This document shows positions 6,757 to 59,488 of a stretch of DNA of 64,000 bases, piece by piece. The stretch lies in assembly GCA_021295915.1 (NCBI GenBank), contig JAGWBK010000005.1:23251-87250 (forward strand), written 5' to 3'. Positions within the stretch are counted from its first letter, which is position 1; the number at the start of each line of letters is the position of its first letter. The notes under the pieces were generated by a model, which was given only the letters and a program-made list of their open reading frames with translations, was not told the origin of the DNA and did no database searches. Source of the stretch: Dehalococcoidia bacterium (GTDB lineage: Bacteria > Chloroflexota > Dehalococcoidia > Lucifugimonadales > UBA1123). The position numbers and the translations under genes are program-made.

Positions 6757-6767
6757 CCTAACCCGTC

Positions 6768-23377: not shown

Positions 23378-24460
23378 TTATGCCGGGGTCGGCAGCCTGG
23401 GAACTACCTCCTTGACCAGGAGCTCCATGGAGCGCACCCAGCTATCGTATGGCTGCCATTCGTGGCCCATCGCAAGCAGTACGCCGAAACCTCCCACGTC
23501 GTCGTAGAGCGTGCCCAATTTCTCAGTCACTTCGTCTGGGCTTCCAACGACGAACACATTGTCTATGAGGTATTCTGCGTCGACGTCCGAGTCAGGCATG
23601 TCAGGATCGACCTTGAACAGGTCCGTCATCCCCAATTTAGGCATGAGCTTCAGGAAGTACTGCTCGAAGTCGCGCCTGAGCACACCGTTCAATGCCTCCT
23701 CACGGGCTTGTTCGGACGTCTCGGCCACGTAGATCTCTCTCGCGATCCGCCAGTCTGCCCGGTTAGGAGTCTGCCCCGTGTTTTCGGCCCCCTTTTCAAC
23801 CGCGTCCCAGTGGGTACTGAGAATTCGCGACGGCACGAGGTTGATGCTCATGGGAATCCATCCCCGTTCGCCAGCCAGTATCAGCGTATCCGAGTTGGGT
23901 GACACGCCGGCGACTCCGATAGGAGGGTGAGGCTTCTGGTAGGGAGTAACGTGAAAACGTAGACCGAAGTCATCCACAGGTTCCGGGATGGTGAACTTCC
24001 AGAACTCGTTCTCATAGGTGCCGGGCTTTGGGTCATTCCAGATTTCCAGGATTAAGTCGATGGAGTCGCGCGTCATCCTCCTGTGCCCATCACCGCGAGG
24101 GTCGAAACCGAACACCTCGAAGTCACCAGGGAATCCACCGGACCCGACTCCCCACTGGAACCGCCCCTTGGCCATGTGGTCTAGCTGGGCAATCCGGTGT
24201 GCAATCATGAACGGGTTGTGGTTGGGCATACAGGTCACGCCGGTCCCGAGCTTGATGTTACTCGTGCGCGCCAGCGCATTGGCGATGAACATGTCAGGGG
24301 CCGGGATGTTCTCCCACACTGTCGTGAAGTGCTCGCCAATCCACGCCTCTGAATAGCCCAGGCTGTCGAGGACCTCGATCTGGTGGAGGTCGTCCTCAAG
24401 GGTCTGCGTGATGTCAGACCCCGGAGGGTGCAGCGGCATAGTGAAGAATCCGACCTGCAT
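23378..24460 (-). CDS. LLM-class (luciferase-like) flavin-dependent oxidoreductase
   Basis: 360-aa ORF with an LLM-type N-terminus (MQVGFFTMPLHPP ... LDSLGYSEAWIGEHF) and TIM-barrel-like periodicity. Confidence 0.85.
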   Translation of the reverse strand: MQVGFFTMPLHPPGSDITQTLEDDLHQIEVLDSLGYSEAWIGEHFTTVWENIPAPDMFIANALARTSNIKLGTGVTCMPNHNPFMIAHRIAQLDHMAKGRFQWGVGSGGFPGDFEVFGFDPRGDGHRRMTRDSIDLILEIWNDPKPGTYENEFWKFTIPEPVDDFGLRFHVTPYQKPHPPIGVAGVSPNSDTLILAGERGWIPMSINLVPSRILSTHWDAVEKGAENTGQTPNRADWRIAREIYVAETSEQAREEALNGVLRRDFEQYFLKLMPKLGMTDLFKVDPDMPDSDVDAEYLIDNVFVVGSPDEVTEKLGTLYDDVGGFGVLLAMGHEWQPYDSWVRSMELLVKEVVPRLPTPA

Positions 24461-32270: not shown

Positions 32271-33182
32271 ATGTTTAGCAGAAGCGCACAGACACTCACT
32301 CCGGAACAGGCGCTCACCAGGCGCTCTGGTCCGCGTCTGTTTGGATTACCGATGCCTGAACTGCGTAGGTGGCCGGTGTCCTCGATCATCATCCTCGGAC
32401 TGTTCGTTATCGCTGCAGGTGGCGCGGACTGGATATCTCCATACGAACTCAATGAAGGGGAACTGGGAGACCGGCACATTCCACCAATGTTCTTCGGCGG
32501 CACCGCCGAGCATGTCCTGGGCACGGACTATCTGGGTCGGGACATTCTGACCCGCACGATTTACGGCGCTCGAATATCGCTGATGGTGGCTGCCGTGGTA
32601 TTAGGAGTAGGGGGGCTATTCGGAACCGTAGTAGGAATGATCTCCGGCTACTTCGGAGGCTGGGTGGACGAGATCATCATGCGCGTCGTGGACATCAAGT
32701 TCTCACTGCCGTTCATCCTCATTGCGCTGGCCCTTGCGCTCATCTTAGGCCCGAGTCTGCCTCTACTTCTCGGACTTCTGGCCTTCCTGATATGGGGAGG
32801 ATTCGCGCGTCAGGTTCGCGGCGAGGTGCTTGTGCTGAAAGAGATGGACTATGTCGCCTTGGCCAAGGTCACCGGCGCATCTACCCCGCGCATACTCTAC
32901 AAGCACATACTCCCCGGCGTGCTTAACACGATCGTCGTTGTGGCGACGATCCAGGTTGGCAACATCATCCTAGCTGAGGCGTCGCTGAGCTTCCTCGGCG
33001 CCGGAGTGCCTCCACCGACACCAGCGTGGGGCTCTATGGTCGCTCTTGGCCGGCTGTACGTCGTAGATGCATGGTGGGACAGCCTCGCGCCCGGCATGGT
33101 CATCGCCCTGGTCGTCATCGCCTTCACTCTGCTCGGCGACTGGGTTCGCGACAGGATGGACCCCCGTCTCAGGCAGACGTAG
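32271..33182 (+). CDS. ABC transporter permease (DppC/OppC-like)
   Basis: 303-aa ORF with GTDYLGRDILTR and the EAA-like loop MDYVALAKVTGAS ... HILPG. Confidence 0.9.
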   Translation: MFSRSAQTLTPEQALTRRSGPRLFGLPMPELRRWPVSSIIILGLFVIAAGGADWISPYELNEGELGDRHIPPMFFGGTAEHVLGTDYLGRDILTRTIYGARISLMVAAVVLGVGGLFGTVVGMISGYFGGWVDEIIMRVVDIKFSLPFILIALALALILGPSLPLLLGLLAFLIWGGFARQVRGEVLVLKEMDYVALAKVTGASTPRILYKHILPGVLNTIVVVATIQVGNIILAEASLSFLGAGVPPPTPAWGSMVALGRLYVVDAWWDSLAPGMVIALVVIAFTLLGDWVRDRMDPRLRQT

Positions 33183-33284
33183 TCCTGTCAACCTGACCCA
33201 TTGCACGCTGTCCTATGCACTAGTAGGATTGCCCTGTCGAGGGTTGCGTACACCAGATGAAGTGCATCCCCCAGGAGAGACGCT

Positions 33285-34487
33285 ATGAACTTCGGTCTGC
33301 TATTTGAGATGCAGCGCCCGTACGAGGGCACCGAGATCGACTGGAACACCCTGTACAAGGAGACTCTTGACCAGTGTGAGCTTGCCGACAACGTCGGCTT
33401 CGACAGGGTATGGTTCGTTGAGCACCACTTCCTGCTTGGATTCTCAGGCTCCCCGTGCCCCGAGGTGATCTTCGGCGCTCTCAGCCAGCGCACCAAAAAC
33501 ATCAGGATTGGGTTCGGAGTGTCGATACTACCTCACGCGCATCCAGTGCGGATAGCTGAGCGTGTGGCGATGGTTGACCAGCTCACCGATGGACGAGTCG
33601 AGTTTGGTACCGGCCGCTCCAACGCCTATGAGCAGATGGGCCTCGGCGTGGATCCTCGGGACACCCGCGAAATGTGGAACGAGTCCATCTCCATGCTGCC
33701 ACAGATCTGGCAGTCCGATGAGTTTGAGTGGGATGGTAAGTTCTGGAATGTGCCGTCTCGCCGCGTGCTGCCCAAGCTGGTACAGAAACCTCATCCGAAC
33801 ATGTACCTGGCCTGCACTCAGTCATCCAGCTTCGACCTGGCGGCAGAAAAGGGCATAGGCGTGCTTTCATCCGCCTCGTACGCGACGTCTGTCCTGGAGT
33901 CGCACGTCAAGACATACAAAGAGAAGATCAAGAATGCCAATTCCGTTGGCGCGTTCACGACCAACTACTGGGCTAACAACGTCCACGCCTTCTGCGGTCC
34001 TGACAACCAGGCGGCTCGTGAGCTCGCCGCGGATTCTATGAAGACCTTCTTCGGGCCTGACAAGCCGTACATTGCCGGTCGGGTCGGCGCCTACGAAGAG
34101 CTGCTGGAGGCATGGGGCGGCGTTCCCGAGCACCTTGAAGCCGACTTCGGACGCTGGCTACGTCAGTCTGATGAGGCTCACAAGCAGCAGGCCGAAGAGG
34201 TGGGAATCTCGCTGGACTCAGGGCCGGGTGCTGCACGTGCAGCCATAGCCGAGCTTGACCCGAACACGCTTGCCGACCGTGCCGTCACCATCGCCGGAGA
34301 TCCCGATAGCTGCATCCGAGCCATCCAGCAATACCAGGAGATCGGCGTCGACGAAGTCATGATGATTATCCAGACTGAGACCATTCCGCACGAGAAGGTC
34401 ATGAGCTCCATCGAACTATTCGGCAAGGAGGTCTTCCCCGTCATCCGAGAGATGGAGAAGTCCAAAGCCGTAGCAACCGCGGACTAG
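33285..34487 (+). CDS. LLM-class flavin-dependent oxidoreductase
   Basis: 400-aa ORF with the N-terminus MNFGLLFEMQRP ... FDRVWFVEHHF, typical of luciferase-like monooxygenases. Confidence 0.85.
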   Translation: MNFGLLFEMQRPYEGTEIDWNTLYKETLDQCELADNVGFDRVWFVEHHFLLGFSGSPCPEVIFGALSQRTKNIRIGFGVSILPHAHPVRIAERVAMVDQLTDGRVEFGTGRSNAYEQMGLGVDPRDTREMWNESISMLPQIWQSDEFEWDGKFWNVPSRRVLPKLVQKPHPNMYLACTQSSSFDLAAEKGIGVLSSASYATSVLESHVKTYKEKIKNANSVGAFTTNYWANNVHAFCGPDNQAARELAADSMKTFFGPDKPYIAGRVGAYEELLEAWGGVPEHLEADFGRWLRQSDEAHKQQAEEVGISLDSGPGAARAAIAELDPNTLADRAVTIAGDPDSCIRAIQQYQEIGVDEVMMIIQTETIPHEKVMSSIELFGKEVFPVIREMEKSKAVATAD

Positions 34488-34739
34488 CATTCAGTGAGCA
34501 CGATAATCGTTCTGGCCGCCGTTCTATTACTCATCGTGGTATGCAGTGCCGCATATCGACTCTTCCTACTGAAGCCGTCTCAACGTGGGCTGTCGAAAAA
34601 AGCACGTCATCAAGCTGAACGGCAGATAGACTTGCACGGGCAAACGTACTGCAACCATTGGACCATTCACTAGGTTGGCATGTGGCGGCTTGATGAGACA
34701 GATGCCTGCCCTAATTCAGGACACCCCAACTAACTGACT

Positions 34740-36884
34740 ATGGACTTCTGGTCGGAGGCGCAGCTCGCCTCCATTCACAAGATGCTAAATCCTCGCTCGA
34801 TCGCCGTCGTTGGCGCGACCGAGCGACCACAGTACGGCGGCAGGTTCCTGCGTGCGGCGCTCCAGGCCGGTGACCGGGTGAGCGTATATCCGGTCAACCC
34901 CCGCTACGACGAACTACTTGGCCTGAAGTGCTACGCAAGCGTACTGGACCTGCCTGAGGCGCCAGATGCCGTCGGCATCATAGTCCCGTATCACAGGGTG
35001 ATACCCGTGCTGCGAGAGAGCGCCGAGCGCGGCGCAGGCTCTGCAATTGTCATATCCGCAGGCTTCTCAGAGCGCGGAGTGGATGACCGGCGAGAGCTCC
35101 AGGCTGAACTTGGGGATGTTGCTAAGGAGACCGGAGTCCGTATCTCCGGCCCGAACTGCCTGGGCCTCGCGAACATAAAGGACGACATCTGGGCGTGTTC
35201 ATCGTCACGACTCGAGGGCGTTGAACTCAGGAGTGGAAACGTCGGGCTCGTATGTCAGAGCGGCGCGTCGGCTTTCGGGCCGTTCATGTCGAGGGCCATC
35301 GGACGTGGCGTAGGTTACTCCTACATCGTCTCGACGGGAAACGAAGCAGACCTGGAAGCTCCGGACTTCGGCAGGTACCTGCTCGATGACGACGATACCA
35401 GCGTCATCGCCATGTTTATCGAGGGCTTCAAGGACGCTCGAAAATTCCTCGAAGTCGCCAGGCTGGCAGCAGAGCGTGGCAAGCCTATTGTGGCCGTCAA
35501 GATTGGTCGGTCCGACCTCGGAATGAGGGCCGCACGCTCGCACACCGCCGCGCTCACAGGCGTCGACGAGGTGTACGATGCCGCGTTCGAACAGTACGGT
35601 GTCATTCGCGTCCACGACTGGGACAAGCTGCTTGAGATCGCACAGCTCTTGTCAGTGGGCAAGTCGCCGGCCAATCGCGGAATCTCCCTGGTCTCACACT
35701 CAGGGGGTGTCTGCTCCCTAACCGCAGACAATCTCGGCGACGCTGGCCTCGAACTGCCCGAACTCACCGACCCTGCCAGAGATGCCATTAATAACATACT
35801 CGAGGGGTTCGGATGGGCCGCAAACCCTGCCGACATTACCGGACACGCCAGCCGTGACACGGTGCTGCCCATCATGGAGCACATGATCAGCGAGCCGGAG
35901 GTTGGAACGCTGGTCGTCGCGAGTTCAGCCTCGGACGCCCAGGCGCAGCACGTGATCGACGTTCGGGATAGACACGACGAGCTCGTGACGTTCCTGTACA
36001 CCGGCAACGAGCTGGGGGCCTCCACAGGACTAGACCGGCTGAAGGATGCGGGCGTGCCCGTGTTCCACAGTCCCGAAAACCTCGCTTCTGCGCTGAAGCA
36101 GTTCCACGACTACCATTCGTGGCGACAGTCGAGGCATGGGTCCGACTTCGGAAGCGTGGCTCCAATGGACGACACTCAGAGTGCCTTTGCCGCTCGGATC
36201 AAGTCCGGGGGAGAAACAACCCTGTCCGAGCACGAGGCCAAACAGCTCATCCAGCAATGGGATGTTACAGTCGCGACTGAGCGGGTAGCCAATTCTGAGG
36301 ACGAAGCCTTGGCTGCTGCCCGGGAGATAGGCTACCCGGTCGTGGTAAAGGTCAACTCTCCCGACATCCTGCACAAGACCGAGGCTGGAGCCCTGAGAGT
36401 AGGCCTGACCTCTGACTATGCAGTGCGAGCAGCCTATGAGGAGGTTGTGGCCAACTCCAAGTCCTACTCACCCGGTGCTCGCCTCGAAGGCGTGCTGGTG
36501 GGAGAGATGGTCCGCGATGCTGCCGAAGTCATAGTCGGCGTGACTTACGACTCTCAGCTGGGTCCAGTACTGCTATTCGGAATGGGTGGCGTTCTCGTAG
36601 AGGTAATGCGCGATGTCGCGCTGAGGGTGTGCCCAATCTCGCGCCAGGATGCCGAAGAGATGGTCGCCCAGGTACGTGGTAGTCGCCTGCTGCACGGATT
36701 CCGAGGTCAGCCAAAAGGCGATGTCGATGCGCTGGTCGATACGCTCGTGCGGGTCTCAGACCTCGCGGTCCACCTTGATGGCGTCATAGAGGAGTTGGAC
36801 ATCAACCCTCTCGCGGTGCTTCCCGAAGGCAGCGGCGTGAAGGCGTTGGATGCTCTGGTAACCCTGAAACAGGACAAGTCATGA
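34740..36884 (+). CDS. ADP-forming acyl-CoA synthetase (acetate--CoA ligase family; fused CoA-binding, ligase-CoA and ATP-grasp domains)
   Basis: 714-aa ORF with a CoA-binding N-terminus (PRSIAVVGATERP), GPNCLGL, a phosphohistidine-loop-like ARSHTAALTG, and a C-terminal ATP-grasp (EHEAKQLI ... GYPVVVKV). Confidence 0.85.
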   Translation: MDFWSEAQLASIHKMLNPRSIAVVGATERPQYGGRFLRAALQAGDRVSVYPVNPRYDELLGLKCYASVLDLPEAPDAVGIIVPYHRVIPVLRESAERGAGSAIVISAGFSERGVDDRRELQAELGDVAKETGVRISGPNCLGLANIKDDIWACSSSRLEGVELRSGNVGLVCQSGASAFGPFMSRAIGRGVGYSYIVSTGNEADLEAPDFGRYLLDDDDTSVIAMFIEGFKDARKFLEVARLAAERGKPIVAVKIGRSDLGMRAARSHTAALTGVDEVYDAAFEQYGVIRVHDWDKLLEIAQLLSVGKSPANRGISLVSHSGGVCSLTADNLGDAGLELPELTDPARDAINNILEGFGWAANPADITGHASRDTVLPIMEHMISEPEVGTLVVASSASDAQAQHVIDVRDRHDELVTFLYTGNELGASTGLDRLKDAGVPVFHSPENLASALKQFHDYHSWRQSRHGSDFGSVAPMDDTQSAFAARIKSGGETTLSEHEAKQLIQQWDVTVATERVANSEDEALAAAREIGYPVVVKVNSPDILHKTEAGALRVGLTSDYAVRAAYEEVVANSKSYSPGARLEGVLVGEMVRDAAEVIVGVTYDSQLGPVLLFGMGGVLVEVMRDVALRVCPISRQDAEEMVAQVRGSRLLHGFRGQPKGDVDALVDTLVRVSDLAVHLDGVIEELDINPLAVLPEGSGVKALDALVTLKQDKS

Positions 36885-37795
36885 CGTACACTGTCCGCCG
36901 CTCCTGGCTCATTGTGCCTGCCCACGACGATAAGGCTCTGTTTGAGGCTGCCGAGTCAGGTGCCGACGTGGTTGTTCTTGACCTGCAGGACACTGTACAC
37001 GAGAGTCGCAAGCACAACGCGCGTGCCAACGTGCCCGGCGCCATAGAAACGATGCGAGACGCCGGAGCCGAGGTCTTCGTGCGCTCCGACATCGAGTTGA
37101 TGTACGCCGACCTCGATGCGTCCGTCTGGCGCGGACTGTCGGGCGTGGTGCTGCCCGGCGTGAAGAGCGTTGAGCAGGTCCAGGAGGCCGACGAGATTCT
37201 CTCTCACTTCGAAGCTGAGCGCGGAGTGGTCAAACCTCCACCGGTCGGTCACGTTAGAGAGGCTGACGATCCACGTGGACCAGAACAAGCTCTCGAGATC
37301 CACCTTTCGCTCGATACCGGTCCAGGCAACTGGCACGCGGAGGATCTGATCCGAGCCAGCGACCGCGTCAAATCCGTCAGCCTTGGACGCGCCGACCTCG
37401 TCATGGACCTCCGTGAGGACCCTGCCGGAGATCTCCACTTGCTCCCGTATCTCATGCAGAGACTAATCATCATCGCAAACGCGACCGGAGTAGAACCTGT
37501 CGGAGCGTGGTGGCGCGCGACGTCCCGGGGGCTGGCAGCAGGTTACGGTGATACGCTCCAGGCCGCGCTGACCGGGAGACAGGCTGGTTTCCGAGGCGCA
37601 CTCTGTATGAGGGCAAACCAGGTCGAGGCGCTAAACAGGGGCTTTACCCCTTCCGGATCGGAGGTGGAGAGCCACACGGCGATGTCTTCTGATTCGGAAA
37701 TATCGTCCAATGTCATTGCATGGGCAGACGCTTGCGCAGCACGCGATCAGGCGAGAGAACTTGTGCGCGGCCAGTCACAGTCCGGCCCTGTTTAG
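36881..37795 (+). CDS. HpcH/HpaI aldolase / citrate lyase beta (CitE)-like protein, paralog 1
   Basis: 304-aa ORF with an ATGA overlap with the synthetase stop. CitE-like blocks are RRSWLIVPA ... SGADVVVLDLQDTV, VVLPGVKS, LSLDTGPG and SLGRADLVMDL. Substitutions occur at canonical acidic positions. Confidence 0.75.
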   Translation: MTYTVRRSWLIVPAHDDKALFEAAESGADVVVLDLQDTVHESRKHNARANVPGAIETMRDAGAEVFVRSDIELMYADLDASVWRGLSGVVLPGVKSVEQVQEADEILSHFEAERGVVKPPPVGHVREADDPRGPEQALEIHLSLDTGPGNWHAEDLIRASDRVKSVSLGRADLVMDLREDPAGDLHLLPYLMQRLIIIANATGVEPVGAWWRATSRGLAAGYGDTLQAALTGRQAGFRGALCMRANQVEALNRGFTPSGSEVESHTAMSSDSEISSNVIAWADACAARDQARELVRGQSQSGPV

Positions 37796-37807
37796 AGAGA
37801 ACAAGCT

Positions 37808-38752
37808 ATGACCAGAAGAGTAAGACGCTCCGGGCTGACAATGCCCATCAACAACCCTCGTTTCGTGGGGCGGTCATGGACTCGTGACTGCGACTATCTC
37901 AACTTCGATTTCGAAGACTCCGTGCCCCAATCGCAAAAGGAGCACGCCCGTACCCTGGTCCGGGACGCCATTGTGCAGGGCCAGAATGGCGCAGCCGAGA
38001 TTAATATCAGGATTAACTGCGCCTATCCCGAGGTCGACGTTCCCGCAGCCGTGTGGCCCGGAGTCACGCAGATCAACTTCCCAAAGGCGGAGACGGCCGA
38101 GCAGATCAAGAACCTCGACGAACTCATCACCAGGATGGAGAGAGTCCGGGGAATCCGGCCCGGCACCGTTCGCATTGGCGCGACAGTCGAGACCACCCTG
38201 GGAGTGGCGAACTCGTACGAGATAGCATCTGCCAGCCGCCGCATCGATTCGTTTGGGCCTGGTACAGGCTATGACATGTCGATGGACATGGGCGTCGAGA
38301 TGTTTGTGGGGTTCGATCAGTTCTTCTATAACCGCGGCGAGGGCGAGCTTGTAGCTCTTGCGCTCGGACTGGAGCGTGACGGCGGCGTATACATGCCGGA
38401 CACGACCGGCGATGTGGGAAACGCCGACCTCGCTATCAATCGGGCGCGGGCCAATAGGAAGGCAGGCCTGAGGTCAGGCGGCGGCCTCCACCCAAACGTC
38501 GTAGCCCCTCAGAACGAGGGCCTCACTCCCACAGCCGAAGAGGTCGACCACGCCCACAGGATCCTCGACTTCTTTGCAGAGCTTGATGAAGCTGGAGAGG
38601 TTGAGGGAGATCTCGACGGCCAGATCGTCGACGTCTACGAGGCTGGGCGCGCGCTTGAGCTGATCGAGTGGGCTGACCTCTGCGCTCAGCGAGACGCGGA
38701 GAAGGCCGCTGCCCGCGCGCAGACCGAGGCCACCGAGGAGTCTTCAGCATGA
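37808..38752 (+). CDS. HpcH/HpaI aldolase / CitE-like lyase, paralog 2 (canonical motifs retained)
   Basis: 314-aa ORF with RRSGLTMP ... NFDFEDSV, IRIN, INFPKAET, ATVETTLGV and FGPGTGYDMSMDMG. These match the CitE/malyl-CoA-lyase motif order. Confidence 0.8.
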   Translation: MTRRVRRSGLTMPINNPRFVGRSWTRDCDYLNFDFEDSVPQSQKEHARTLVRDAIVQGQNGAAEINIRINCAYPEVDVPAAVWPGVTQINFPKAETAEQIKNLDELITRMERVRGIRPGTVRIGATVETTLGVANSYEIASASRRIDSFGPGTGYDMSMDMGVEMFVGFDQFFYNRGEGELVALALGLERDGGVYMPDTTGDVGNADLAINRARANRKAGLRSGGGLHPNVVAPQNEGLTPTAEEVDHAHRILDFFAELDEAGEVEGDLDGQIVDVYEAGRALELIEWADLCAQRDAEKAAARAQTEATEESSA

Positions 38753-39681
38753 AGCCATTCGTCAGAAGGTCTCATCTGCTGGTCGACCTCCTCAACCGTG
38801 AATCAGTCAACTCCTCCTGGACGCACAATGCGGACGCAATCATTCTGGCGATGCCGACAGGTGCACTGGAAAGGTCTTCACTTCGCGCAAACCTGCGACA
38901 GACCGTCAACTCGGCTGCACTGGGCGGCGCAGAGGTGTTTGTTCTGACGAATAGGGACCTCGCATTTGCAGACCTGGGGGCCGCTTCCGGTCCAGGTCTG
39001 AAGGGAATCGTGTATGCGGGCGCCGAGTCAGGAACTGAGCTTGAACGGCTTGACGAGTGGCTTGACGAGTTCGAAAAGAAGAGTGGTACCCCCGAGAACA
39101 CGCTCCACATAATCGTGTTGCTCACGTCAGGCGCGGGGGTGTGGAACATCCGCGAGATAGTTCGCGCGTCAGACAGGGTAAGCTCGGTAGGAATCGATGA
39201 GCTAGCCCTGTGTAAGAGCTTGGGAATCGTGCCGACCACTGACTTTGACCCATTCGAGTACGCAAAGGGTCGGGTCATAATTGAAGCGCGCGCCTCGAGA
39301 GTCCAGCCAATTGGCATGAGTCATCCGTACGGAGTGCTCCCTGAGTTTGGCGATGAAGGTGAGATCGCTCGCCTTGCCCTCAGGTCGAAGAACCTCGGAT
39401 TCGCCGGCGCTATCTGTCCTGACCCATCCTGGGTCGATCATTGCAACAGGGCATTCGCTCCGCCCGAAGACAGGTTGGAGTTCTACCGGGAGACGAGACG
39501 ACTATTCGCTGAAGGCGTGGCGCGTGGCACCGCTGCGATTCCCTATCCCGGCACCACAATGATGATCGACGTCCCTGTAGATGAGAACGCCCGCGTCAAC
39601 TTGGAGCTCTGGGAGCGCTGTGCGGCTCGCGAGGCCGAAAAGGCGACCGCCGTTGCAGAGTCGCTGGCTCGTCTGGCCTGA
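38749..39681 (+). CDS. CitE-like protein, paralog 3 (degenerate motifs; possible non-catalytic subunit)
   Basis: 310-aa ORF with an ATGA overlap with paralog 2. Length and block order resemble CitE (RRSHLLV ..., SDRVSSVGIDELA), but the DLED, LPK and ET motifs are replaced (LAMPTG, YAGAES, LLTS). Confidence 0.6.
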   Translation: MKPFVRRSHLLVDLLNRESVNSSWTHNADAIILAMPTGALERSSLRANLRQTVNSAALGGAEVFVLTNRDLAFADLGAASGPGLKGIVYAGAESGTELERLDEWLDEFEKKSGTPENTLHIIVLLTSGAGVWNIREIVRASDRVSSVGIDELALCKSLGIVPTTDFDPFEYAKGRVIIEARASRVQPIGMSHPYGVLPEFGDEGEIARLALRSKNLGFAGAICPDPSWVDHCNRAFAPPEDRLEFYRETRRLFAEGVARGTAAIPYPGTTMMIDVPVDENARVNLELWERCAAREAEKATAVAESLARLA

Positions 39682-39713
39682 CAGCGTAGGCCGCGCGCCT
39701 TCGACGCCAGAAT

Positions 39714-40508
39714 TCAGTCGCTCACCAGGTGCCGCAGCACCATGCCCGAGAATTCCCCCGGCTTCTCCACGTGTGGCAGGTGACCGCACCCGGGAACGAC
39801 TTCAAGAACCGATCCGGCAATTGCCTCGTGAATTCGATTACCTGCGCTAGGCGGGATGATCCTGTCCTCGGCTCCCCATACAACTGTTGTCGGTACGTCG
39901 ACCCTCTGTAGGAGCCATTCAAGGCTACGGTCATACATATAGGGCTTCCAGCACAGTCTCGTCGTCATCTCCCGACCGCGAATCTTAAGCTCCCGCTCTT
40001 CAGTGCTCAGCTCGCGTTCGAATAGATCCGAGTACTCAGGCACACTTGGTGCATCGTGGAACGAGAGCCGAGTCGTCTCGTCCTCTCCCAACAGGAAGAC
40101 GTCGGCGATCTCGCCAGTGTCCGGCCTGACACCCGCGGCATCCACCAGGACCAGGCCGCCCAGGCTGCCCGGACTCATGGTCGCCATCTCAGCAGCAATC
40201 CATCCGCCAAGGAAGTGCCCGACGAGTGTCACGGCGTCGAGCTTCAGCTCCTGGATCATCCACAGGTAGAAGCGCGCCATGTCCGAGACCGACTCGAGGA
40301 ACTTGGGCCGCTCCGAACGCCCGAAGCCCGTATGCGTCGGCGCGTACACTGTTGCGGACTTCGAGACTTCTTCCATCCACGGGAGCCAGCCCAGGTTGCC
40401 ATCGATGCTGTGCAGAAAGAGCAGGGGAGGACCGTCACCACCTTTCAGGAGATGGATCTTAGCTCCGCCGACTTCAATGAACTCCTCGACAAAGGATGTC
40501 GTGGTCAT
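39714..40508 (-). CDS. Alpha/beta-fold hydrolase
   Basis: HSIDG oxyanion region, nucleophile elbow GHFLGG and a C-terminal GCGHLPHVE. I chose the ATG at 40508 (MTTTSFVEEF), which forms an ATGA overlap with the upstream LLM stop. The longer ORF to 40640 would overlap that gene by 130 nt. Confidence 0.85.
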   Translation of the reverse strand: MTTTSFVEEFIEVGGAKIHLLKGGDGPPLLFLHSIDGNLGWLPWMEEVSKSATVYAPTHTGFGRSERPKFLESVSDMARFYLWMIQELKLDAVTLVGHFLGGWIAAEMATMSPGSLGGLVLVDAAGVRPDTGEIADVFLLGEDETTRLSFHDAPSVPEYSDLFERELSTEERELKIRGREMTTRLCWKPYMYDRSLEWLLQRVDVPTTVVWGAEDRIIPPSAGNRIHEAIAGSVLEVVPGCGHLPHVEKPGEFSGMVLRHLVSD

Positions 40509-41707
40509 GGCGCCACCTCGAACGGCCCCGGAAGCTCCAGCTCTTCGCCGATCTCTCTCAGCGCTGGCAGCACGTCCGAGTCCATCAGTTCCAGGCACCT
40601 CATGGAGTCTTCGTGGCTGATACTGCCATCGTTGGTCCACACGGCGAGGATTCCCGGCCGGATGACCGACAGCACCTCTCGAAGCTTTCTGATTACTGTG
40701 TCGGGGTTGCCTACTACTATCCGGTTCATTCCGACAACCCTGTCGTAGCCTGCGGCGTCGACACCCCCCACCAGCCGGTCGGGACGGAGGTTGATCTGCG
40801 AACTGCGCCGCCTACCCTCGATAGATGTATAGCCAGGAGGGTTCATGTATTCCGGCGGCATGGGGACGCGCCCGACACCGGCATTGCCAGACAGGAACCC
40901 TTTGCCCACCTCGTAGGCCTTCTCGTCTGTGTCCTGCACGTGTACTCGGAACAGATATCCGAAGTTCTGCGGACCTGGTTCGTACCCAACCTCGTTCGCA
41001 GCCTCGGCGTAGATAGCCTTTGCGTCGCCAACGACCTCTGGGTCCGCCTCCAGGAATACGTAAGGGTAGTGGTGCTGCGCCGCCCAGATCATCGTCTCAG
41101 GACTCGCGCTGCCGGGCACCCACACCGGAGGGTGCGGGTCCTGGAGAGGCCGTACGAACGGGTTAACCACCCTGTACTCGAAGTGACGTCCCTCCCACCT
41201 GAACGGGCCGGGAGTTGTCCAAGTCTTGATTATCAGATCGTGCGCCTCCTGGAAACGCTCGCGGTTGTGGACAGGGTTCGTGTTCGTGGCCCACGACTCG
41301 ACTCCGGTGCCGCGCACGAATCCTGATACGAGTCTGCCCCGTGAGATCAGGTCTATCTCCGCTAGCTCCTCGGCCATCCTGACTGGATTGTCCGAGATAG
41401 GCAGCGGGTTTCCGAGAAGCACGATCTTCGCGTTCTTCGTCGCGCGTGCAAGGATCGCCGCCTCCAGGTTCATCGCCGCTCCCATGCACGTCGGCGTGTT
41501 GTGATGCTCGTTGAGCATCAGCCCGTCGAACCCCATCTCCTCGCAGTACTCGTACTCATCGAGGTAATAGTTGTACATGTCCGCTGCGGTCTCTGGATCG
41601 AAGTGGGAGTTTGGGAACGTAAGCCTCACCGCGCTGCGGTAGCTGTTCCTCACGTCCTCCTCGGTGTAGTGGAAGTAGGCTCGCTCTGTGAAGCGCATCA
41701 GAAACAT
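40505..41707 (-). CDS. LLM-class flavin-dependent oxidoreductase
   Basis: Luciferase-like pattern (EEMGFDGLMLNEHH ...). I chose the ATG at 41707 (MFLMRF), which is preceded by GGGGG. The ORF track starts at a GTG at 41746. Confidence 0.85.
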   Translation of the reverse strand: MFLMRFTERAYFHYTEEDVRNSYRSAVRLTFPNSHFDPETAADMYNYYLDEYEYCEEMGFDGLMLNEHHNTPTCMGAAMNLEAAILARATKNAKIVLLGNPLPISDNPVRMAEELAEIDLISRGRLVSGFVRGTGVESWATNTNPVHNRERFQEAHDLIIKTWTTPGPFRWEGRHFEYRVVNPFVRPLQDPHPPVWVPGSASPETMIWAAQHHYPYVFLEADPEVVGDAKAIYAEAANEVGYEPGPQNFGYLFRVHVQDTDEKAYEVGKGFLSGNAGVGRVPMPPEYMNPPGYTSIEGRRRSSQINLRPDRLVGGVDAAGYDRVVGMNRIVVGNPDTVIRKLREVLSVIRPGILAVWTNDGSISHEDSMRCLELMDSDVLPALREIGEELELPGPFEVAP

Positions 41708-41829
41708 GGTCTGCACCCCCGTGTGTCCGGCTGATACTATTCGCACGTCCGTCTACGGTCAAGCTGACGTTGACGATGTCCCTCCCCACAAATAAGCTGG
41801 GGCGAACCACCCGCAGAAAGGACTTACCC

Positions 41830-42726
41830 ATGCCTATCGAACAGAACTCATCGGAACTCTCTCAGGTTCTCGACACCGACCAGCAGATTGAGTGGCACGG
41901 AAGCGGCTACGGAGGCGTCGGCGGCCCCGCCGAAGGTCCGCTCTGGTGGCATGAAGGTGGCTACCTGCTCTTCAGCGATATTCACAACAACCGTAGGATG
42001 AAGCTGATTCCCGGCGAAGGGGTGTCTGTCTACCAGCAGCCCACCAACCACGCCAACGGACTGACCCGCGACCTCAGGGGCAGGCTCGTAGCCTGTGAGC
42101 ACAGCTCCCGCCGGGTGACGCGACAGGACTCCGATGGGGAAGTAACCGTCATTGCCTGGAGCTACCGAGGCCGAAGGCTGAACCGCCCCAACGACGCGGT
42201 GGTGAAGTCTGACGGAAGCATCTACTTCACCGATCCCGGCGCGCCCGGTCCCGGTCTCGACCTCGACTTCGCAGGGGTCTACATGGTCCCTCCAGACCTC
42301 GGTGACATAACCATGATCGTGGGTGATTTCCTGACTCCCAACGGCCTCGCATTCTCCCCGGACGAGAGCATCCTGTACGTGAATGACACACGCAGGCAGC
42401 ACATCCGTGCATTCGATGTTCAACCCAACAACACGATCGCGTTGGCCTCCGATCGGGTCCTGTGCGACCTCAGCGGGGATCGGCCTGGCGTGCCCGACGG
42501 CATGAAGGTCGACGTCGAAGGCAATATGTACTGCGGAGGGGCAGGCGGAGTCTGGGTGATCGACTCTGATGGCAACCACCTAGGCACGGTCGCTCACGGC
42601 GAGGGCGCGACTACCAACGTCGCCTTCGGCGGCGATGACTGGAAGACGCTCTACTTCACTACTTGGAACATGGTCGGAAGTGTCCGTGTGAACATACCCG
42701 GCATCCCGGTGCCGACGGACCGCTAG
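41830..42726 (+). CDS. SMP-30/gluconolactonase/LRE-family beta-propeller protein
   Basis: The motifs GPLWWHEGGYLLFSDI, NGLTRD, PNDAVVKSDGSIYFTDP, PNGLAFSPDE, PDGMKVDVEGN and TNVAFGG are typical of the family. I chose the ATG at 41830, preceded by GAAAGGA. Confidence 0.85.
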   Translation: MPIEQNSSELSQVLDTDQQIEWHGSGYGGVGGPAEGPLWWHEGGYLLFSDIHNNRRMKLIPGEGVSVYQQPTNHANGLTRDLRGRLVACEHSSRRVTRQDSDGEVTVIAWSYRGRRLNRPNDAVVKSDGSIYFTDPGAPGPGLDLDFAGVYMVPPDLGDITMIVGDFLTPNGLAFSPDESILYVNDTRRQHIRAFDVQPNNTIALASDRVLCDLSGDRPGVPDGMKVDVEGNMYCGGAGGVWVIDSDGNHLGTVAHGEGATTNVAFGGDDWKTLYFTTWNMVGSVRVNIPGIPVPTDR

Positions 42727-42791: not shown

Positions 42792-44183
42792 CTAAGTTGA
42801 CGTTCGAGTCGTCGCAGGCTCGGTTGGCACTGTACCCAGGGGAGCTTGCGGTCTTCTTACGAATATCATCAACACGCCGCCCGCGAACGTTAGCCCAGCA
42901 AATATTGTGAAAGGCACGATGTACGTACCGGTAGTGTCGAACATGTAGCCCGCAAACAGAGGTGCAAAGATCATCGCGATGTTCATTGGGAACTGCGAGA
43001 TCCCCATTATCGTGGCGAATGCTTTTCTCCCAAAGTATTCGCCACGGATCGCAGTCGTCAGCGGACTCCTACCTCCAAAGCCAATCCCATATAGCACCGC
43101 AAATACGTATGCCATCACTACGCCATCGAACAGGGCGATGATCAAAATGCCCGCTCCCTGCACGAACATGAAGAAGGCAATCATCAGGGTCTTGGGGAGT
43201 CTGTCGGCGTAGTATCCGGATATGAACTGCGCTGGCAGAGCAATGATGGTGTAGGTCGTGTGGACCGAAGCTGCCGCGGTGAGGGACATCCCTGTGTCCG
43301 TCAGCTTTGGCACGAGATGCAGCGCCAATGAAACGATAGCCACGCTGGACGCAACCTGGGCGATTGTCAGCATCCAGAAAGCTGGCGTCTTCAGCGCCTG
43401 TTTGACGGTGAATTCGGGTTCAACGTCCACTATTGGTTCTGATGTGGCGCCCTCAGTGCTTGCTACCTGAGCATGCTGAGTGTCCCCGTCTGGATGGAGC
43501 CCCATATCCTCGGGGTGGTTCCGAATGGCCTTCGTTGCCGGCCCCACGATGGCCAGCAGGACGATGCCTATTCCAAGCGCAGTGCTTTCGAATCCGTATG
43601 TGTCGATTGCCAGCGCGAATGGTGTAACTAGCAACCCGCCGAGGTGTATGCCAGACATCGCGGTCGCCATTGCGAACGACCGACGCCTGCTGAACCAGTT
43701 GTTCACAAGCGCGATGAGCGCCAGCCAGCCCCCCAGTCCCGACCCTAGCGTAATGAAAATGTACGCCATGTAAAACTGGATGAGACTCTCGTCGAGGGAG
43801 TCGAATGGCGTGAATTTAGCTATTAGCCGAAGGTTCCCCAGTGTCTCAATCTGGGACAGCCATATGAATCCCACCCCCATGATCGTGTAACCGATCATTA
43901 CCATGCGCCTGGTGCCAATGCGGTCGATCAGCACGCCCTCTAACGGCCCTAGTACCGCCCCTTCGACCCGTGCGAGTGAGAATGCGCCGGAGAGTGCCGT
44001 GCGGCTCCATTGGAACTGGCGCTCCAGTGCTACCAGCATCGTGCCGAGTCCCTGGAAGACTGTAAGGGACATCAGCGTCAGCATGATGGAGGAGATGCCG
44101 ACCAGCCACCAGCCGTAGAAGACACCACGCACGCCTGCTACGGCCTCTCTGGCCGACGCGGGTCTGAATACGCCTTTACGCAA
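42792..44183 (-). CDS. MFS transporter
   Basis: 463-aa ORF with about 12 hydrophobic segments, a central hydrophilic loop and an MFS motif-A-like GVLIDRIGTRR. Confidence 0.85.
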   Translation of the reverse strand: MRKGVFRPASAREAVAGVRGVFYGWWLVGISSIMLTLMSLTVFQGLGTMLVALERQFQWSRTALSGAFSLARVEGAVLGPLEGVLIDRIGTRRMVMIGYTIMGVGFIWLSQIETLGNLRLIAKFTPFDSLDESLIQFYMAYIFITLGSGLGGWLALIALVNNWFSRRRSFAMATAMSGIHLGGLLVTPFALAIDTYGFESTALGIGIVLLAIVGPATKAIRNHPEDMGLHPDGDTQHAQVASTEGATSEPIVDVEPEFTVKQALKTPAFWMLTIAQVASSVAIVSLALHLVPKLTDTGMSLTAAASVHTTYTIIALPAQFISGYYADRLPKTLMIAFFMFVQGAGILIIALFDGVVMAYVFAVLYGIGFGGRSPLTTAIRGEYFGRKAFATIMGISQFPMNIAMIFAPLFAGYMFDTTGTYIVPFTIFAGLTFAGGVLMIFVRRPQAPLGTVPTEPATTRTST

Positions 44184-49689: not shown

Positions 49690-50490
49690 TCAGGAGGCCG
49701 TCCAGTTGGGCTGCCGCTTCTCGGAGAATGCACGAGGTCCTTCGATCCTGTCCGCCGAGGAGTTGTGCTTCTGAGCCTCGCTGTAGTTACGAGACATGGC
49801 CACGTCGAGGGGCCAGTCCAGACCCATGTACCCCATCTGCTTGCTCGCCCGTATTGATAGGGGAGCGCACTCCAGTATCTCGTTTGCCCATCTCTCCGCC
49901 GTCGGCATGAGGTCAGCTAGGGGCACGACCTCGTTTACGAGGCCTATTCGGTACGCCTCCTGCGCGCTGATGCGTCGCGCAGTGAGCATCATTCCCATCG
50001 CAATCTTCGTGGGCAGGTGACGGGGAAGCCTGAACACTCCTCCGGCTCCAGCGTACAGTCCTACGCGAGGCTCAGGCAGACCGACCTGCGCGTGATCGGC
50101 CGCGATGATGATGTCGCAGGCCATAGCGGTCTCCAGCCCGCCTCCGAGTGCGTACCCGTTTACGGCCGCAATCATCGGCTTCCAGCACTCAAAGTTCGAC
50201 GTGATGCCGCCAAACGGCGCGCGAGCATATCGTACGTTTGGGTCCTGATCGCCGTGCTGGCCCTGGTCCCGCTCCGCTGTATATCGCAGATCGTTGCCCG
50301 CGCTGAATGCCCTCTCTCCGGCTCCGGTGAGGATGGCTACCCACGCGTCGGGGTCATCGTTGAACCTCGTGAAAGCGTCGTGCAGCTCAGCGTTTGCCGG
50401 AGGGTGAAGCGCGTTCATACGCTCGGGCCGGTTAATCGTCACATATGTGATCCGGTCCTTCTGCTCGTAGGTAATGAACTCGTAAGACAT
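49690..50490 (-). CDS. Enoyl-CoA hydratase/isomerase (crotonase) family protein
   Basis: 266-aa ORF with RPERMNAL, ILTGAGERAFSAGNDL, AAVNGYALGGGLE and a crotonase fold pattern. Confidence 0.9.
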   Translation of the reverse strand: MSYEFITYEQKDRITYVTINRPERMNALHPPANAELHDAFTRFNDDPDAWVAILTGAGERAFSAGNDLRYTAERDQGQHGDQDPNVRYARAPFGGITSNFECWKPMIAAVNGYALGGGLETAMACDIIIAADHAQVGLPEPRVGLYAGAGGVFRLPRHLPTKIAMGMMLTARRISAQEAYRIGLVNEVVPLADLMPTAERWANEILECAPLSIRASKQMGYMGLDWPLDVAMSRNYSEAQKHNSSADRIEGPRAFSEKRQPNWTAS

Positions 50491-51164: not shown

Positions 51165-51351
51165 GGATGTCTCCTTGTGTTGCCTGGGCGGTCTCTCCCG
51201 CCCTTTATGCCACTAGTTGTATCGAACATGCGGTACCCTTGCCAACCTGTTTCGATGGTACAGGGTCATTCAGACCTGCTGGTGCGACTGAATTACCTGT
51301 CTGCTATCATGTGCCCGCAATTTGCCACGATGTGAACAGGGAGGCCTAGCT

Positions 51352-54813: not shown

Positions 54814-54856
54814 CCGATTTCCCCCTAGTGTATTTTGTGCCTGCTGTCCGGAAACC

Positions 54857-55453
54857 CTATTTCGGAGTTGTCTCCTGGGCAACGATCCTGGCTATGTCCG
54901 ACACGGCTTCGTCGAGCCTGCCGTCATGGTTCACTACCCTGTGGTCGAACCAGTCAGCTGCCTTCATTTCCTCGCGCGCCGTCTCCAACTTGATCCTTAG
55001 CGCCTCGCCTTGCTCTGTGCCGCGATCCGTAAGTCGCCTGTCCAGCGACTCCATGCTTGGCGGCTCGAGAAATATCAGCACCGCGTCAGAGTACAGCCTC
55101 TTGACCGTTGCTGCGCCCTGGACGTCCACTTTCAGAAGCACATTGCGACCAGCCTCAAGGGCATCAGTCACCTGCGACTTTGGGACCCCATACAGGTTGC
55201 CGTACACTTCAGCCCACTCCAGCAGGCCGTCTTCATCTATCATGCGCTGAAATTCACCGCGTGCCATGAAGAGGTAGTCGACGTCGTCGCGCTCGCCCGG
55301 TCTCTTTGGACGGGTAGTCGCCGTAGTCGTAAAGTAGAAATCCTCGCGCTGCTGCTTCATAACAGAGAGCAGGGCGTCCTTCCCGACCCCTGAGGGCCCG
55401 GACAGGACAAACAGGCGGCCGTCAGATTTGCTGTCCACGGACCGGTTGGTCAA
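54857..55453 (-). CDS. gmk: Guanylate kinase
   Basis: P-loop LSGPSGVGKDAL, TTRPKRPGE, and a length of 198 aa. Confidence 0.93.
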   Translation of the reverse strand: MTNRSVDSKSDGRLFVLSGPSGVGKDALLSVMKQQREDFYFTTTATTRPKRPGERDDVDYLFMARGEFQRMIDEDGLLEWAEVYGNLYGVPKSQVTDALEAGRNVLLKVDVQGAATVKRLYSDAVLIFLEPPSMESLDRRLTDRGTEQGEALRIKLETAREEMKAADWFDHRVVNHDGRLDEAVSDIARIVAQETTPK

Positions 55454-59459: not shown

Positions 59460-59488
59460 TTTACCAGTCGAAAATCATTACATATAAT
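59460..59488 (+). promoter_or_regulatory. Candidate sigma-70 promoter for rpsA
   Basis: TTTACC (59460-59465), a 17-nt spacer, then TATAAT (59483-59488), 37 nt upstream of the rpsA ATG. Confidence 0.4.

Follow-up and report, generated by a model that had tools for sequence, protein, structure and literature searches.

Three tandem CitE-like paralogs beside an ADP-forming acyl-CoA synthetase in a Dehalococcoidia bacterium: candidate subunits of one hetero-oligomeric CoA-ester lyase

Gene organization

The window, a 64,000 nucleotide stretch of a Dehalococcoidia bacterium contig, has four closely spaced genes on the plus strand: an acyl-CoA synthetase (ACD) followed by three CitE-like paralogs designated P1, P2 and P3 (Table 1). 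The junctions were read from the DNA. ACD and P1 share an ATGA overlap (36881-36884), P1 ends in a TAG codon (37793-37795) that is separated by a 12 nt gap from the ATG of P2 at 37808, and P2 and P3 share another ATGA overlap (38749-38752). A sequence-only reading of this DNA had described four same-strand genes with ATGA, 12-nt and ATGA spacing, and its coordinates were exact. Gene callers place the start of P2 11 codons later on identical metagenome contigs, which results in a product of 303 aa; the longer start retains an N-terminal RRS motif common to all three paralogs.

The luciferase-like monooxygenase lies directly upstream in 13 loci, with at least 80% identity, and is possibly part of the same pathway as the trio. 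Downstream, the alpha/beta hydrolase has a weak NCBIfam similarity to PcaD, and its product is shorter (264-270 aa) according to gene callers on identical contigs. Of 48 loci, 24 have the SMP-30/gluconolactonase-family gene close to the trio and 22 have the MFS transporter. The transporter matches NF049980 and TIGR00890, both below the cut-off.

Table 1. Genes of the CitE-like trio locus and its neighbours, in window coordinates
Feature	Position	Strand	Evidence and remarks
Luciferase-like (flavin or F420) monooxygenase	33285..34487	+	PF00296 1.5e-48; upstream neighbour
ACD, fused alpha-beta NDP(ADP)-forming acyl-CoA synthetase, 714 aa	34740..36884	+	PF13380, PF13607, PF13549
P1, CitE-like paralog, 304 aa	36881..37795	+	PF03328 1.2e-20
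P2, CitE-like paralog, 314 aa	37808..38752	+	PF03328 4.9e-21
P3, CitE-like paralog, 310 aa	38749..39681	+	PF03328 1.1e-10
Alpha/beta hydrolase, 3-oxoadipate enol-lactonase-like	39714..40640	-	PF00561 2e-22; convergent with P3
SMP-30/gluconolactonase-family protein	41770..42726	+	PF08450 7e-50; downstream neighbour
MFS transporter, lactate / oxalate-formate type	42792..44183	-	PF07690; downstream neighbour

Family membership and catalytic residues

The three paralogs match the HpcH_HpaI profile (PF03328) with bit scores of 74.2 (P1), 75.5 (P2) and 41.7 (P3), all above the gathering score of 25, in agreement with the HpcH/CitE assignment made from sequence alone. They are 25-31% identical to each other, and all are under strong purifying selection (dN/dS about 0.06-0.11; 0.07-0.08 for P1 and 0.07-0.11 for P3). 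The fold of a TIM barrel with a C-terminal lid is supported by the AF2 model of P3 and, minus the lid hairpin, by that of P1. Every equivalog model scores far below its cut-off on the trio. The CitE model (TIGR01588) gives 64.2, 112.7 and 52.9 bits for P1, P2 and P3 against a cut-off of 443.4, RipC/Ccl (NF038242) gives 54.2, 63.8 and 27.0 bits against 375, and the L-malyl-CoA/beta-methylmalyl-CoA lyase model (NF041626) gives 26.8 bits for P2 against 500. None of citD, citF, citC, citG and citX turned up in the genes scanned between 12.7 and 57.8 kb.

The catalytic reference set, in R. sphaeroides Mcl numbering, consists of D42/E44/D45, R76, E141 and D168 in the barrel and D299 in the lid (PMC3832036). 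In malyl-CoA lyase structures the lid Asp comes from the neighbouring subunit and completes the active site (PMC3832036), a principle that is invoked below for the trio. More generally, known CitE-like enzymes assemble every active site from the TIM barrel of one subunit, with its Mg ligands and Arg, and the lid Asp of the next.

P2 is the only paralog with the complete set (D34, E36, D37, R68, K93, E128, D156 and lid D275), and each of these columns is kept in 42-43 of 43 orthologs. Across loci it also varies least among the three (64-98% identity), and its best solved relatives are the malyl-CoA lyases 5ugr (7e-21) and 4l9y (5e-15). The motifs of P2 had been described as canonical; this applies to the catalytic residues, all of which are kept, but not to the last motif, GPGTGYDMSMD, in which one extra residue precedes the Mg-ligand Asp. 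This Asp, D156, is invariant (43/43).

The barrel site of P1 is modified yet invariant in 41 of 41 orthologs (D34, Q36, D37, R68, G93, D145 and D172), with substitutions at three catalytic positions (E to Q36, E to D145 and K to G93). P1 also has a conserved 17-residue insertion (about 117-135). The C-terminal lid beta-hairpin, which bears the catalytic Asp, is lost, and only 5 of 41 orthologs have this Asp. In the AF2 model (pLDDT 88.5, pTM 0.89; Foldseek TM 0.75 against CLYBL 5vxc) helices 259-267 and 273-300 are linked by a 5-residue loop, without the hairpin. The conservative changes at acidic positions noticed earlier are present (Q36 and D145), but that account was incomplete, as it missed G93, the loss of the lid and the insertion.

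P3 shows the opposite pattern. Its barrel catalytic positions are lost in the clade of the window (A34, P36, T37, L66 and T126), which leaves it without the barrel Arg and the Mg site, while the lid hairpin with D274 (GTTMMIDVPVDE; lid motif MMIDVPVDE) is invariant. Among 45 orthologs the E44 position is kept in none, D45 in 7, R76 in 14 and the lid Asp in all 45. The earlier statement that P3 had lost almost all motifs holds for the barrel in this clade, but the lid Asp is kept. The AF2 model (pLDDT 95.4, pTM 0.92) places the lid hairpin at residues 264-273 and aligns with 4l9y and 5vxc at Foldseek TM 0.80-0.85 over 305-311 columns. P3 is probably more than a mere scaffold: its catalytic lid Asp is likely supplied in trans. 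In some clades P3 retains the Arg and the Mg position still holds an acidic residue, so it may be active there.

Alignment, proposed by the sequence-only reading as a check and here including profile alignments to solved chains, leaves P2 alone with the full CitE-like catalytic set. The missing lid Asp of P1 and the missing barrel site of P3 would each leave the respective homo-oligomer catalytically incomplete.

Acyl-CoA synthetase and other CoA partners

ACD contains CoA_binding_2 (7e-22), Succ_CoA_lig (3e-49) and ATP-grasp_5 (8e-73) domains and the phosphohistidine motif ARSHTAALTG with His268. The CoA-binding, flavodoxin-like ligase and ATP-grasp domains together with the phosphohistidine loop identify an NDP-forming acyl-CoA synthetase, and the earlier description as a fused alpha/beta ADP-forming enzyme holds. 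The best NCBIfam match, 4-hydroxybutyrate-CoA ligase (NF045493), scores 482.3 bits against a cut-off of 1300; since this is far below the cut-off, the similarity is at family level only and gives no substrate assignment.

ACD is presumed to be the CoA-activating (or ATP-yielding) partner of the trio. It is adjacent to the trio in 16 of 48 loci. One of these is the distant locus L052, where the ortholog is 56% identical over 708 aa and conserves the SHTAA motif with His268. Family III CoA-transferases replace ACD in 12 other loci, so that a ligase or transferase accompanies the trio in 28 of 48; in the other 20, neither was found within 10 kb. The link to a ligase that had been proposed is therefore real, but not every locus has it.

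The partners also bear on the nature of the substrate. PF03328 spans both CoA-ester lyases and free 2-oxoacid aldolases of the HpcH/HpaI type, so a heteromer might cleave a non-CoA substrate, with the ligase acting on the product. This is very improbable, since each of the closest relatives in sequence and structure is a CoA-ester lyase (malyl-CoA lyases, CLYBL or citramalyl-CoA lyase), a C-terminal lid domain is characteristic of CitE-like proteins (PMC3832036), and the partner, in each of the 28 loci that have one, is a CoA ligase or CoA-transferase.

Recurrence of the trio and natural fusions

Among 44 related loci from Dehalococcoidia/SAR202 and Entotheonella, 40 have the genes in the order P1-P2-P3, so the cassette is conserved in relatives, another point that had been put forward for checking. 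The checks suggested by the sequence-only reading that were carried out in silico all favoured its interpretation. Start/stop codon overlaps occur both in the window and in L049. Orthologous trios are also found in a Gaiellaceae MAG and in a Betaproteobacteria MAG, where the order is P1-P3-P2 and P1 is cut before the lid domain. The trio, sometimes with two copies fused, recurs in at least four bacterial lineages. P3-like genes are solitary in two loci (L024 and L027), and L030 has P2-P3 without an adjacent P1.

Three distinct clusters of natural P1-P2 fusion proteins were found (P0141, P0149 and P0175), and a P3-like gene comes after each. In L052 the Arg is lost from the P1 domain and the P3 barrel is canonical. 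Judged by such residue patterns, the degenerate member is P1 or P3 depending on the lineage, and the L052 pattern leaves the P2 barrel and P3 lid as the only universal combination.

These observations bear on whether the paralogs act separately. Three homo-oligomers could carry out different steps on related CoA esters and be clustered only through a shared pathway; one might be a lyase, another a thioesterase resembling R. sphaeroides Mcl2 and the third a non-catalytic binding protein, for example. Every solved CitE-like protein matched is a single-protein entry, one CitE-like paralog with an altered lid residue is known to be a thioesterase (PMC3832036), the invariant barrel residues of P1 imply some site-dependent function, and P3 can stand alone, as in the two loci above. 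However, the lid Asp would be absent from a P1 homo-oligomer, and a P3 homo-oligomer in the clade of the window would have neither Arg nor Mg site, although selection on both is as strong as on P2. The P1-P2 fusions argue for physical association, and distant lineages have all three orthogroups together, with overlapping start and stop codons in the window and L049. The presence of three genes, the fusions and the complementary losses appear to argue against homo-oligomers, and separate enzymes are considered quite unlikely.

Proposed heteromeric enzyme

Since the paralogs are strongly diverged, with different catalytic losses, and the trio recurs in at least four lineages, they most likely belong to one mixed-subunit enzyme. 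On balance, the three genes probably encode the subunits of a pseudo-symmetric hetero-oligomeric Mg2+-dependent CoA-ester C-C lyase/synthase. From the observed gene structure, family membership, residue patterns, conservation, fusions and selection we infer complex formation, the lid-to-barrel pairing and cyclic order of the subunits, and the chemistry, substrate and direction. The simplest assembly would be a P1:P2:P3 heterotrimer, or two of these joined as a dimer, and the substrate would be a beta-hydroxyacyl-CoA of the malyl-/citramalyl-CoA type, acted on by a Mg2+-dependent C-C lyase or synthase.

The essential site would be formed by the P2 barrel and the P3 lid D274, since in every lineage the P2 barrel alone is complete and the P3 lid alone, besides that of P2 itself, is invariant. 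In the P2 barrel, E128 and D156 would bind Mg, E36 and D37 would hold the Mg waters, and R68 would complete the site. The P2 lid D275 would close the modified P1 barrel, giving a possible second site that is altered or regulatory, and the C-terminus of P1, which has no lid, would cover the P3 barrel, which is degenerate and would be dispensable. The P2 lid Asp is still invariant in P0149, where the P1 barrel has lost its Arg, and the proposed geometry leaves this invariance unexplained. The CoA thioester would be supplied by the co-transcribed ADP-forming ligase from acid, ATP and CoA via His268, and by family III CoA-transferases in other lineages.

The module could equally run in reverse. 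The same heteromer would then condense acetyl- or propionyl-CoA with a 2-oxoacid (glyoxylate or pyruvate) to a hydroxyacyl-CoA; the reversible ligase would free the acid and make ATP, the CoA-transferase would recycle CoA in other lineages, and the result would amount to an ATP-conserving malate-synthase-type route. Synthetases of the NDP-forming acyl-CoA type work in both directions, and archaeal fermentations use them to make ATP. As partners, both the ligase and the CoA-transferases are direction-neutral, and malyl-CoA lyases catalyse reversible reactions (PMC3832036). The sequence itself does not set the direction, however, the transporter, binding-protein, lactonase-like and monooxygenase neighbours look catabolic, and no glyoxylate-forming enzyme was identified. 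A primarily condensing role is therefore rather unlikely.

A more elaborate form of the mixed-subunit enzyme, a heterotrimer with a trans P2-P3 site, a second P1-P2 site for a different step and a ligase that makes it an ATP-coupled lyase/synthase, is doubtful and somewhat less likely still.

Relation to known systems

No precedent for a mixed-subunit CitE-like lyase was found in the literature and solved structures searched. The malyl-CoA lyases (Mcl) of R. sphaeroides (4L9Y/4L9Z), M. extorquens (5UGR) and C. aurantiacus (4L7Z/4L80) are the best sequence and structure match of the trio and have the same TIM barrel and C-terminal lid. P2 has all Mcl catalytic residues, although it is only about 20-30% identical and carries the extra residue before the Mg-ligand Asp. 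Mcl is a one-gene homo-hexamer in which each subunit is complete, whereas the trio consists of three paralogs with complementary losses. The homologous beta-hydroxyacyl-CoA lyases (S)-citramalyl-CoA lyase, RipC, CLYBL and M. tuberculosis CitE (Rv2498c; TM 0.7-0.85) are single-gene homotrimers, unlike the trio, and these lyases pair with CoA-transferases in itaconate and leucine catabolism.

Two known pathways combine a CitE-like lyase with such partners. In the serine cycle, the ADP-forming ligase malate thiokinase (MtkAB) makes the hydroxyacyl-CoA that Mcl cleaves; in the 3-hydroxypropionate bi-cycle, a two-subunit family III CoA-transferase, succinyl-CoA:malate CoA-transferase (SmtAB), makes it for Mcl. 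The trio is found with the same two kinds of partner, but its ligase is a single-chain NDP-forming ACD rather than the succinyl-CoA-synthetase-type MtkAB, and its lyase is encoded by three genes. Citrate lyase (CitDEF) likewise places a homolog of the trio, CitE, within a hetero-oligomeric complex; its partners, the CitF transferase and CitD acyl carrier protein, are unrelated to CitE, whereas the proposed subunits here are paralogs.

Implications

If the more elaborate form is correct, a family of which only homo-oligomers are known would include a pseudo-symmetric heterotrimer. For sponge Chloroflexi, a reductive TCA cycle has been reported in which ATP-citrate lyase is the one missing enzyme (10.1101/328013). 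In that form, the ATP-coupled module would be at work in SAR202, Entotheonella and further uncultured lineages. Its candidate roles would be an ATP-conserving route of the malate-synthase type or another ATP-dependent way of cleaving citrate or a citramalate-like acid.

Gene layout and family assignment

The cassette consists of four same-strand genes, a fused ADP-forming acyl-CoA synthetase (the ligase) and three CitE-like paralogs (P1, P2 and P3, together the trio). Their ORFs and translations agree exactly with the sequence-only reading. The three Pfam domains of the first gene match the fused synthetase that had been proposed, and all three downstream genes match PF03328, as expected for the HpcH/CitE family. 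The junctions, read earlier as ATGA, 12 nt and ATGA, are confirmed on the DNA: ATGA at 36881-36884 joins the ligase to P1, TAG at 37793-37795 is separated by 12 nt from the ATG of P2 at 37808, and ATGA at 38749-38752 joins P2 to P3. P1, P2 and P3 share 25-31% pairwise identity and are old paralogs, with no fourth CitE-like copy elsewhere in the window. An identical cassette is present on two metagenome contigs, where the P2 start is called 11 codons later. Promoter and terminator scans of 33000-42000 gave none above shuffled expectation, and the 252-nt leader upstream of the ligase has no riboswitch match in Rfam.

Features of the window
Feature	Position	Strand	Remarks
Fused ADP-forming acyl-CoA synthetase	34740-36884	+	714 aa; Pfam CoA_binding_2, Succ_CoA_lig, ATP-grasp_5
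P1	36881-37795	+	304 aa; PF03328 HpcH/CitE, E = 1.2e-20
P2	37808-38752	+	314 aa; PF03328 HpcH/CitE, E = 4.9e-21
P3	38749-39681	+	310 aa; PF03328 HpcH/CitE, E = 1.1e-10
Luciferase-like monooxygenase	23378-24460	-	one of four paralogs
Luciferase-like monooxygenase	33285-34487	+	one of four paralogs
Luciferase-like monooxygenase	40505-41746	-	one of four paralogs
Luciferase-like monooxygenase	51322-52371	+	one of four paralogs
Small ORF	34494-34673	+	59 codons, GTG start
Hydrolase	39714-40640	-	longest ORF
Enoyl-CoA hydratase	49690-50490	-
MR/MLE enolase-superfamily gene	52429-53613	+
Family III CoA-transferase	53617-54882	-
5S rRNA gene	59143-59235	+	Rfam RF00001, 68 bits
ORF overlapping the 5S rRNA gene	59152-59487		111 aa; probably spurious

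Catalytic residues

In malyl-CoA lyase (Mcl, R. sphaeroides numbering) the Mg ligands are E141 and D168, the Mg-bound waters are held by E44 and D45, D42 orients the proposed base R76, and D299 lies on a beta-hairpin of the neighbouring subunit's C-terminal lid (PMC3832036). These positions were compared in aligned orthologs from the related loci (41 of P1, 43 of P2 and 45 of P3), and profile alignments to solved chains concur with the mapping.

Catalytic positions in the three paralogs (counts are orthologs)
Reference position	P1	P2	P3
Mcl D42	D34, 41/41	D34, kept	33/45 kept, A34 in window
Mcl E44	Q36 (Q in 32, E in 9)	E36, kept	0/45 kept, P36 in window
Mcl D45	D37, 41/41	D37, kept	7/45 kept, T37 in window
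Mcl R76	R68, 41/41	R68, kept	14/45 kept, L66 in window
Lys of PK motif	G93	K93, kept	mostly Gly
Mcl E141	D145, 41/41	E128, kept	E 11, D 22, other 12 (n=45), T126 in window
Mcl D168	D172, 41/41	D156, 43/43, after 1-residue insertion	acidic pair D150/E151, one and two positions before the column
Mcl D299 (lid)	5/41	D275, 43/43	D274, 45/45

P2 retains every catalytic position in 42-43 of its 43 sequences; the set is incomplete in both P1 and P3, which bears out the earlier claim that P2 is the only paralog to keep it whole. The description of the P2 motifs as canonical holds for these positions, except for the inserted residue before D156 (GTGYD). P1 had been credited with conservative changes at acidic positions. 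Q36 and D145 fit this description, but P1 also carries G93, has a conserved 17-residue insertion (PPPVG..DDPRGPEQ) and in most members has lost the lid hairpin of about 25 residues. The five sequences that keep the lid Asp are all of the Entotheonella type, as read by eye. P3 was said to have lost almost all of its motifs, which is correct for the barrel of the window copy but not for the lid, whose invariant Asp sits in the invariant motif GTTMMIDVPVDE.

The AF2 model of P3 (pLDDT 95.4, pTM 0.92) places the lid hairpin at residues 264-273. In the P1 model (pLDDT 88.5) the last two helices are joined by a 5-residue loop, and the insertion loop is of low confidence. Both models match malyl-CoA lyase and CLYBL with TM scores of 0.75-0.85. 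The dN/dS is 0.06-0.11 across all three genes (dS about 1), indicating strong purifying selection; therefore, P1 and P3 are functional proteins and not decaying copies. A reading of P3 as a decaying pseudogene was rejected: its frame is intact in 45 genomes, its dN/dS is 0.07-0.11 and its model has a pLDDT of 95.

Conservation, fusions and lineage variation

When GTDB species representatives were scanned with P3, 46 loci were obtained. The related ones number 44 (L003-L046), and their hosts are Dehalococcoidia/SAR202 MAGs and four Candidatus Entotheonella assemblies. P1, P2 and P3 occur in the same order and strand in 40 of the 44. Among the exceptions, L042 ends at a contig edge, L030 has an alpha/beta hydrolase where P1 is expected, and P3 is by itself in L024 and L027. 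With trios in distant lineages as well, the three-paralog cassette is conserved in relatives. Relatives in a metagenome protein collection (E<=1e-5) number 1464 for P1 and 444 for P3, and an exhaustive HMMER search with P3 matched 1952 cluster representatives at E<=1e-3, 32 of them at E<=1e-30.

Three of the P3 HMMER matches are two-domain proteins, P0141 (645 aa, Gaiellaceae MAG), P0149 (638 aa) and P0175 (612 aa), in which the N-terminal half is P1-like and the C-terminal half is P2-like. The MAFFT alignment for P0149 puts all single-domain homologs on the C-terminal half and leaves the N-terminal half with 3 sequences. A P3-like gene follows each fusion; its start overlaps the fusion's stop in L049, and in L052 the two genes abut. 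A clear orthologous trio is also found in a Betaproteobacteria MAG (L050), where the genes run P1-P3-P2 and P1 (239 aa) ends short of the lid domain. Since trios and fusions occur in distant lineages, the three orthogroups are old or widely transferred. The recurring theme is a complete P2, a lidless P1 and a P3 with its lid intact. Which barrel decays varies with lineage: P3 of L052 is canonical (DLED, R, E) and the fused P1 domain lacks the Arg, and P3 of a CoA-transferase-associated clade retains D, D and R, and its Mg position is acidic.

Several loci have further peculiarities. In a Dehalococcoidia subgroup (L010, L012-L016, L018, L020, L043 and L046) P2 is 348-363 aa long (gene about 8913-10004), with 35-50 extra C-terminal residues running into the P3 start, and no ligase or CoA-transferase is found within 10 kb. 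L026 and L029 are on the same closed MAG chromosome (OZ245405.1), which has two trios about 300 kb apart across the record start, each with CoA-transferases. Insertions of roughly 1.7-3.8 kb occur on the 3' side at L006, L007 and L009 (P3-hydrolase gap), L010 (10882-11520) and L045 (P2-P3 gap). L010 has a Uma2-family putative restriction endonuclease gene after P3, and in L045 3.8 kb separates P2 from P3, whose match covers residues 123-305 only. Upstream of the Gaiellaceae fused trio and on the opposite strand to it, L049 1-5391 (-) contains a YcaO, DUF2268, PP-binding, PRTase_2/TRSP, PRTase_3 and HAD hydrolase cluster. P0298 (763 aa) joins an HpcH domain with cytochrome c domains (PF13442, PF00034) in one protein, and P0303-P0313, P0315 and P0316 (about 370-430 aa) are CitD (acyl carrier, PF06857)-CitE fusions.

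CoA-activating partners and neighbours

The ligase had been proposed as a dedicated partner of the trio. It is adjacent in 16 of 48 loci, the distant L052 among them, but 12 have one or two family III CoA-transferases before or after the trio instead, and 20 have neither enzyme within 10 kb. Over 708 aa the L052 ligase is 56% identical to that of the window, and its SHTAA phosphohistidine loop is conserved. The best NCBIfam matches of the CoA-transferases, all sub-threshold, are of dicarboxylate type (succinate-glutarate, succinyl-CoA:mesaconate and formyl-CoA:oxalate). This exchange between two non-homologous CoA-activating enzymes is good evidence for a CoA thioester as the substrate of the trio.

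Recurrent neighbouring genes encode SMP-30/gluconolactonase-family proteins (24 loci), MFS carboxylate-type transporters (22 loci) and luciferase-like monooxygenases (13 loci). An alpha/beta hydrolase resembling enol-lactonases joins them in the window's own clade, and in distant lineages the trio is accompanied by TctC binding proteins, Amidohydro_2 and a PrpD/MmgE protein. L052 is flanked by a thiamine-diphosphate enzyme of acetolactate-synthase/oxalyl-CoA-decarboxylase type (5264-6943, +), a PrpD/MmgE-family protein (12237-13613, +), TctC and Amidohydro_2, which may be clues to a hydroxy-tricarboxylate-like substrate. Overall, the neighbours are a weak pointer to a hydroxy-di- or tricarboxylic acid that lactone hydrolysis may set free. 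No NCBIfam equivalog model reaches its cut-off for the trio, ligase or neighbours, so the names are at family level only and support no substrate assignment.

Other features of the window

In the product of the small ORF in the 252-nt monooxygenase-ligase gap, a hydrophobic helix precedes a basic tail (VSTIIVLAAVLLLIVVCSAAYRLFLLKPSQRGLSKKAR...). Seven related loci (L003-L009) have a matching ORF in the same place, with 36-88% identity; in L003 it is 54% identical, compared with 96-97% for the flanking genes. Either this is a small, rapidly evolving membrane protein, or the stretch is a non-coding leader. The 5S rRNA gene stands alone; no 16S or 23S rRNA match was reported in any part of the window (64 kb). 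The longest ORFs of the hydrolase and the adjacent monooxygenase share 136 nt. On identical contigs the called genes have shorter products (264 and 400 aa, respectively) and overlap by 4 nt; therefore, the true starts of both are probably downstream of the first start codons. SAR202 genomes are reported to be enriched in luciferase-family monooxygenases and CaiB/BaiF-type proteins (10.1101/328013), and the monooxygenase and CoA-transferase content of the window agrees with the Dehalococcoidia/SAR202 labels that its closest loci carry.

Proposed assembly

A CitE-like site combines one subunit's barrel with its neighbour's lid. A P3 homo-oligomer of the window clade would have neither the Arg nor the Mg site, and a P1 homo-oligomer would be missing the catalytic Asp. 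The P2 barrel with the P3 lid is the only pairing complete in every lineage examined, and because of this the parsimonious ring, with each lid over the next barrel, would be P1 to P3 to P2 to P1. The lidless tail of P1 would lie over the dispensable P3 barrel, P3 D274 would complete the P2 site, and P2 D275 would close the P1 barrel, remodelled but invariant and possibly a second site. The opposite ring order would leave the P2 barrel, the best conserved, without a lid Asp in most lineages. Against the proposed ring, the P2 lid Asp is invariant even where the P1 barrel has no Arg. The ring also predicts that the P1 lid Asp should track the P3 barrel Arg, but sequences read by eye give no clean correlation; in the CoA-transferase clade the P3 Arg is present and the P1 lid is absent. 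The ligase would convert acid, ATP and CoA to the CoA ester, with the ATP-yielding reverse equally possible. The initial interpretation of the trio, a possible heteromeric lyase with one catalytic and one or two pseudo-enzyme subunits, is supported with amendments.

Comparison with known systems and significance

By sequence and fold the nearest relatives of the trio are malyl-CoA lyases, CLYBL and citramalyl-CoA lyase, which P2 on paper resembles in mechanism. Pairing the trio with an activating partner follows the same modular logic as malate thiokinase with Mcl or SmtAB with Mcl. The trio differs from known CitE-like lyases in having three paralogs with complementary losses. Malyl-CoA lyase is a single-gene homo-oligomer (PMC3832036), and the solved structures matched (malyl-, citramalyl- and citryl-CoA lyases, CLYBL and M. 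tuberculosis CitE) are all single-gene homo-oligomers, each entry a single protein. No heteromeric or three-gene CitE-like lyase was found in the literature searched, but its coverage is incomplete and the result counts only as absence of evidence.

The trio is common, and its hosts include Entotheonella and SAR202, an abundant deep-ocean group whose carbon metabolism has mostly been deduced from genomes. All three genes are currently annotated as 'citrate lyase subunit beta', and this uniform label masks the architecture as well as an uncharacterised CoA-dependent step, either C-C cleavage or condensation. If the proposal is true, the trio would be an obligate three-paralog CitE-like lyase in which the labour of barrel and lid is divided, and a clean natural case of a symmetric enzyme becoming an asymmetric one with pseudo-enzyme subunits.
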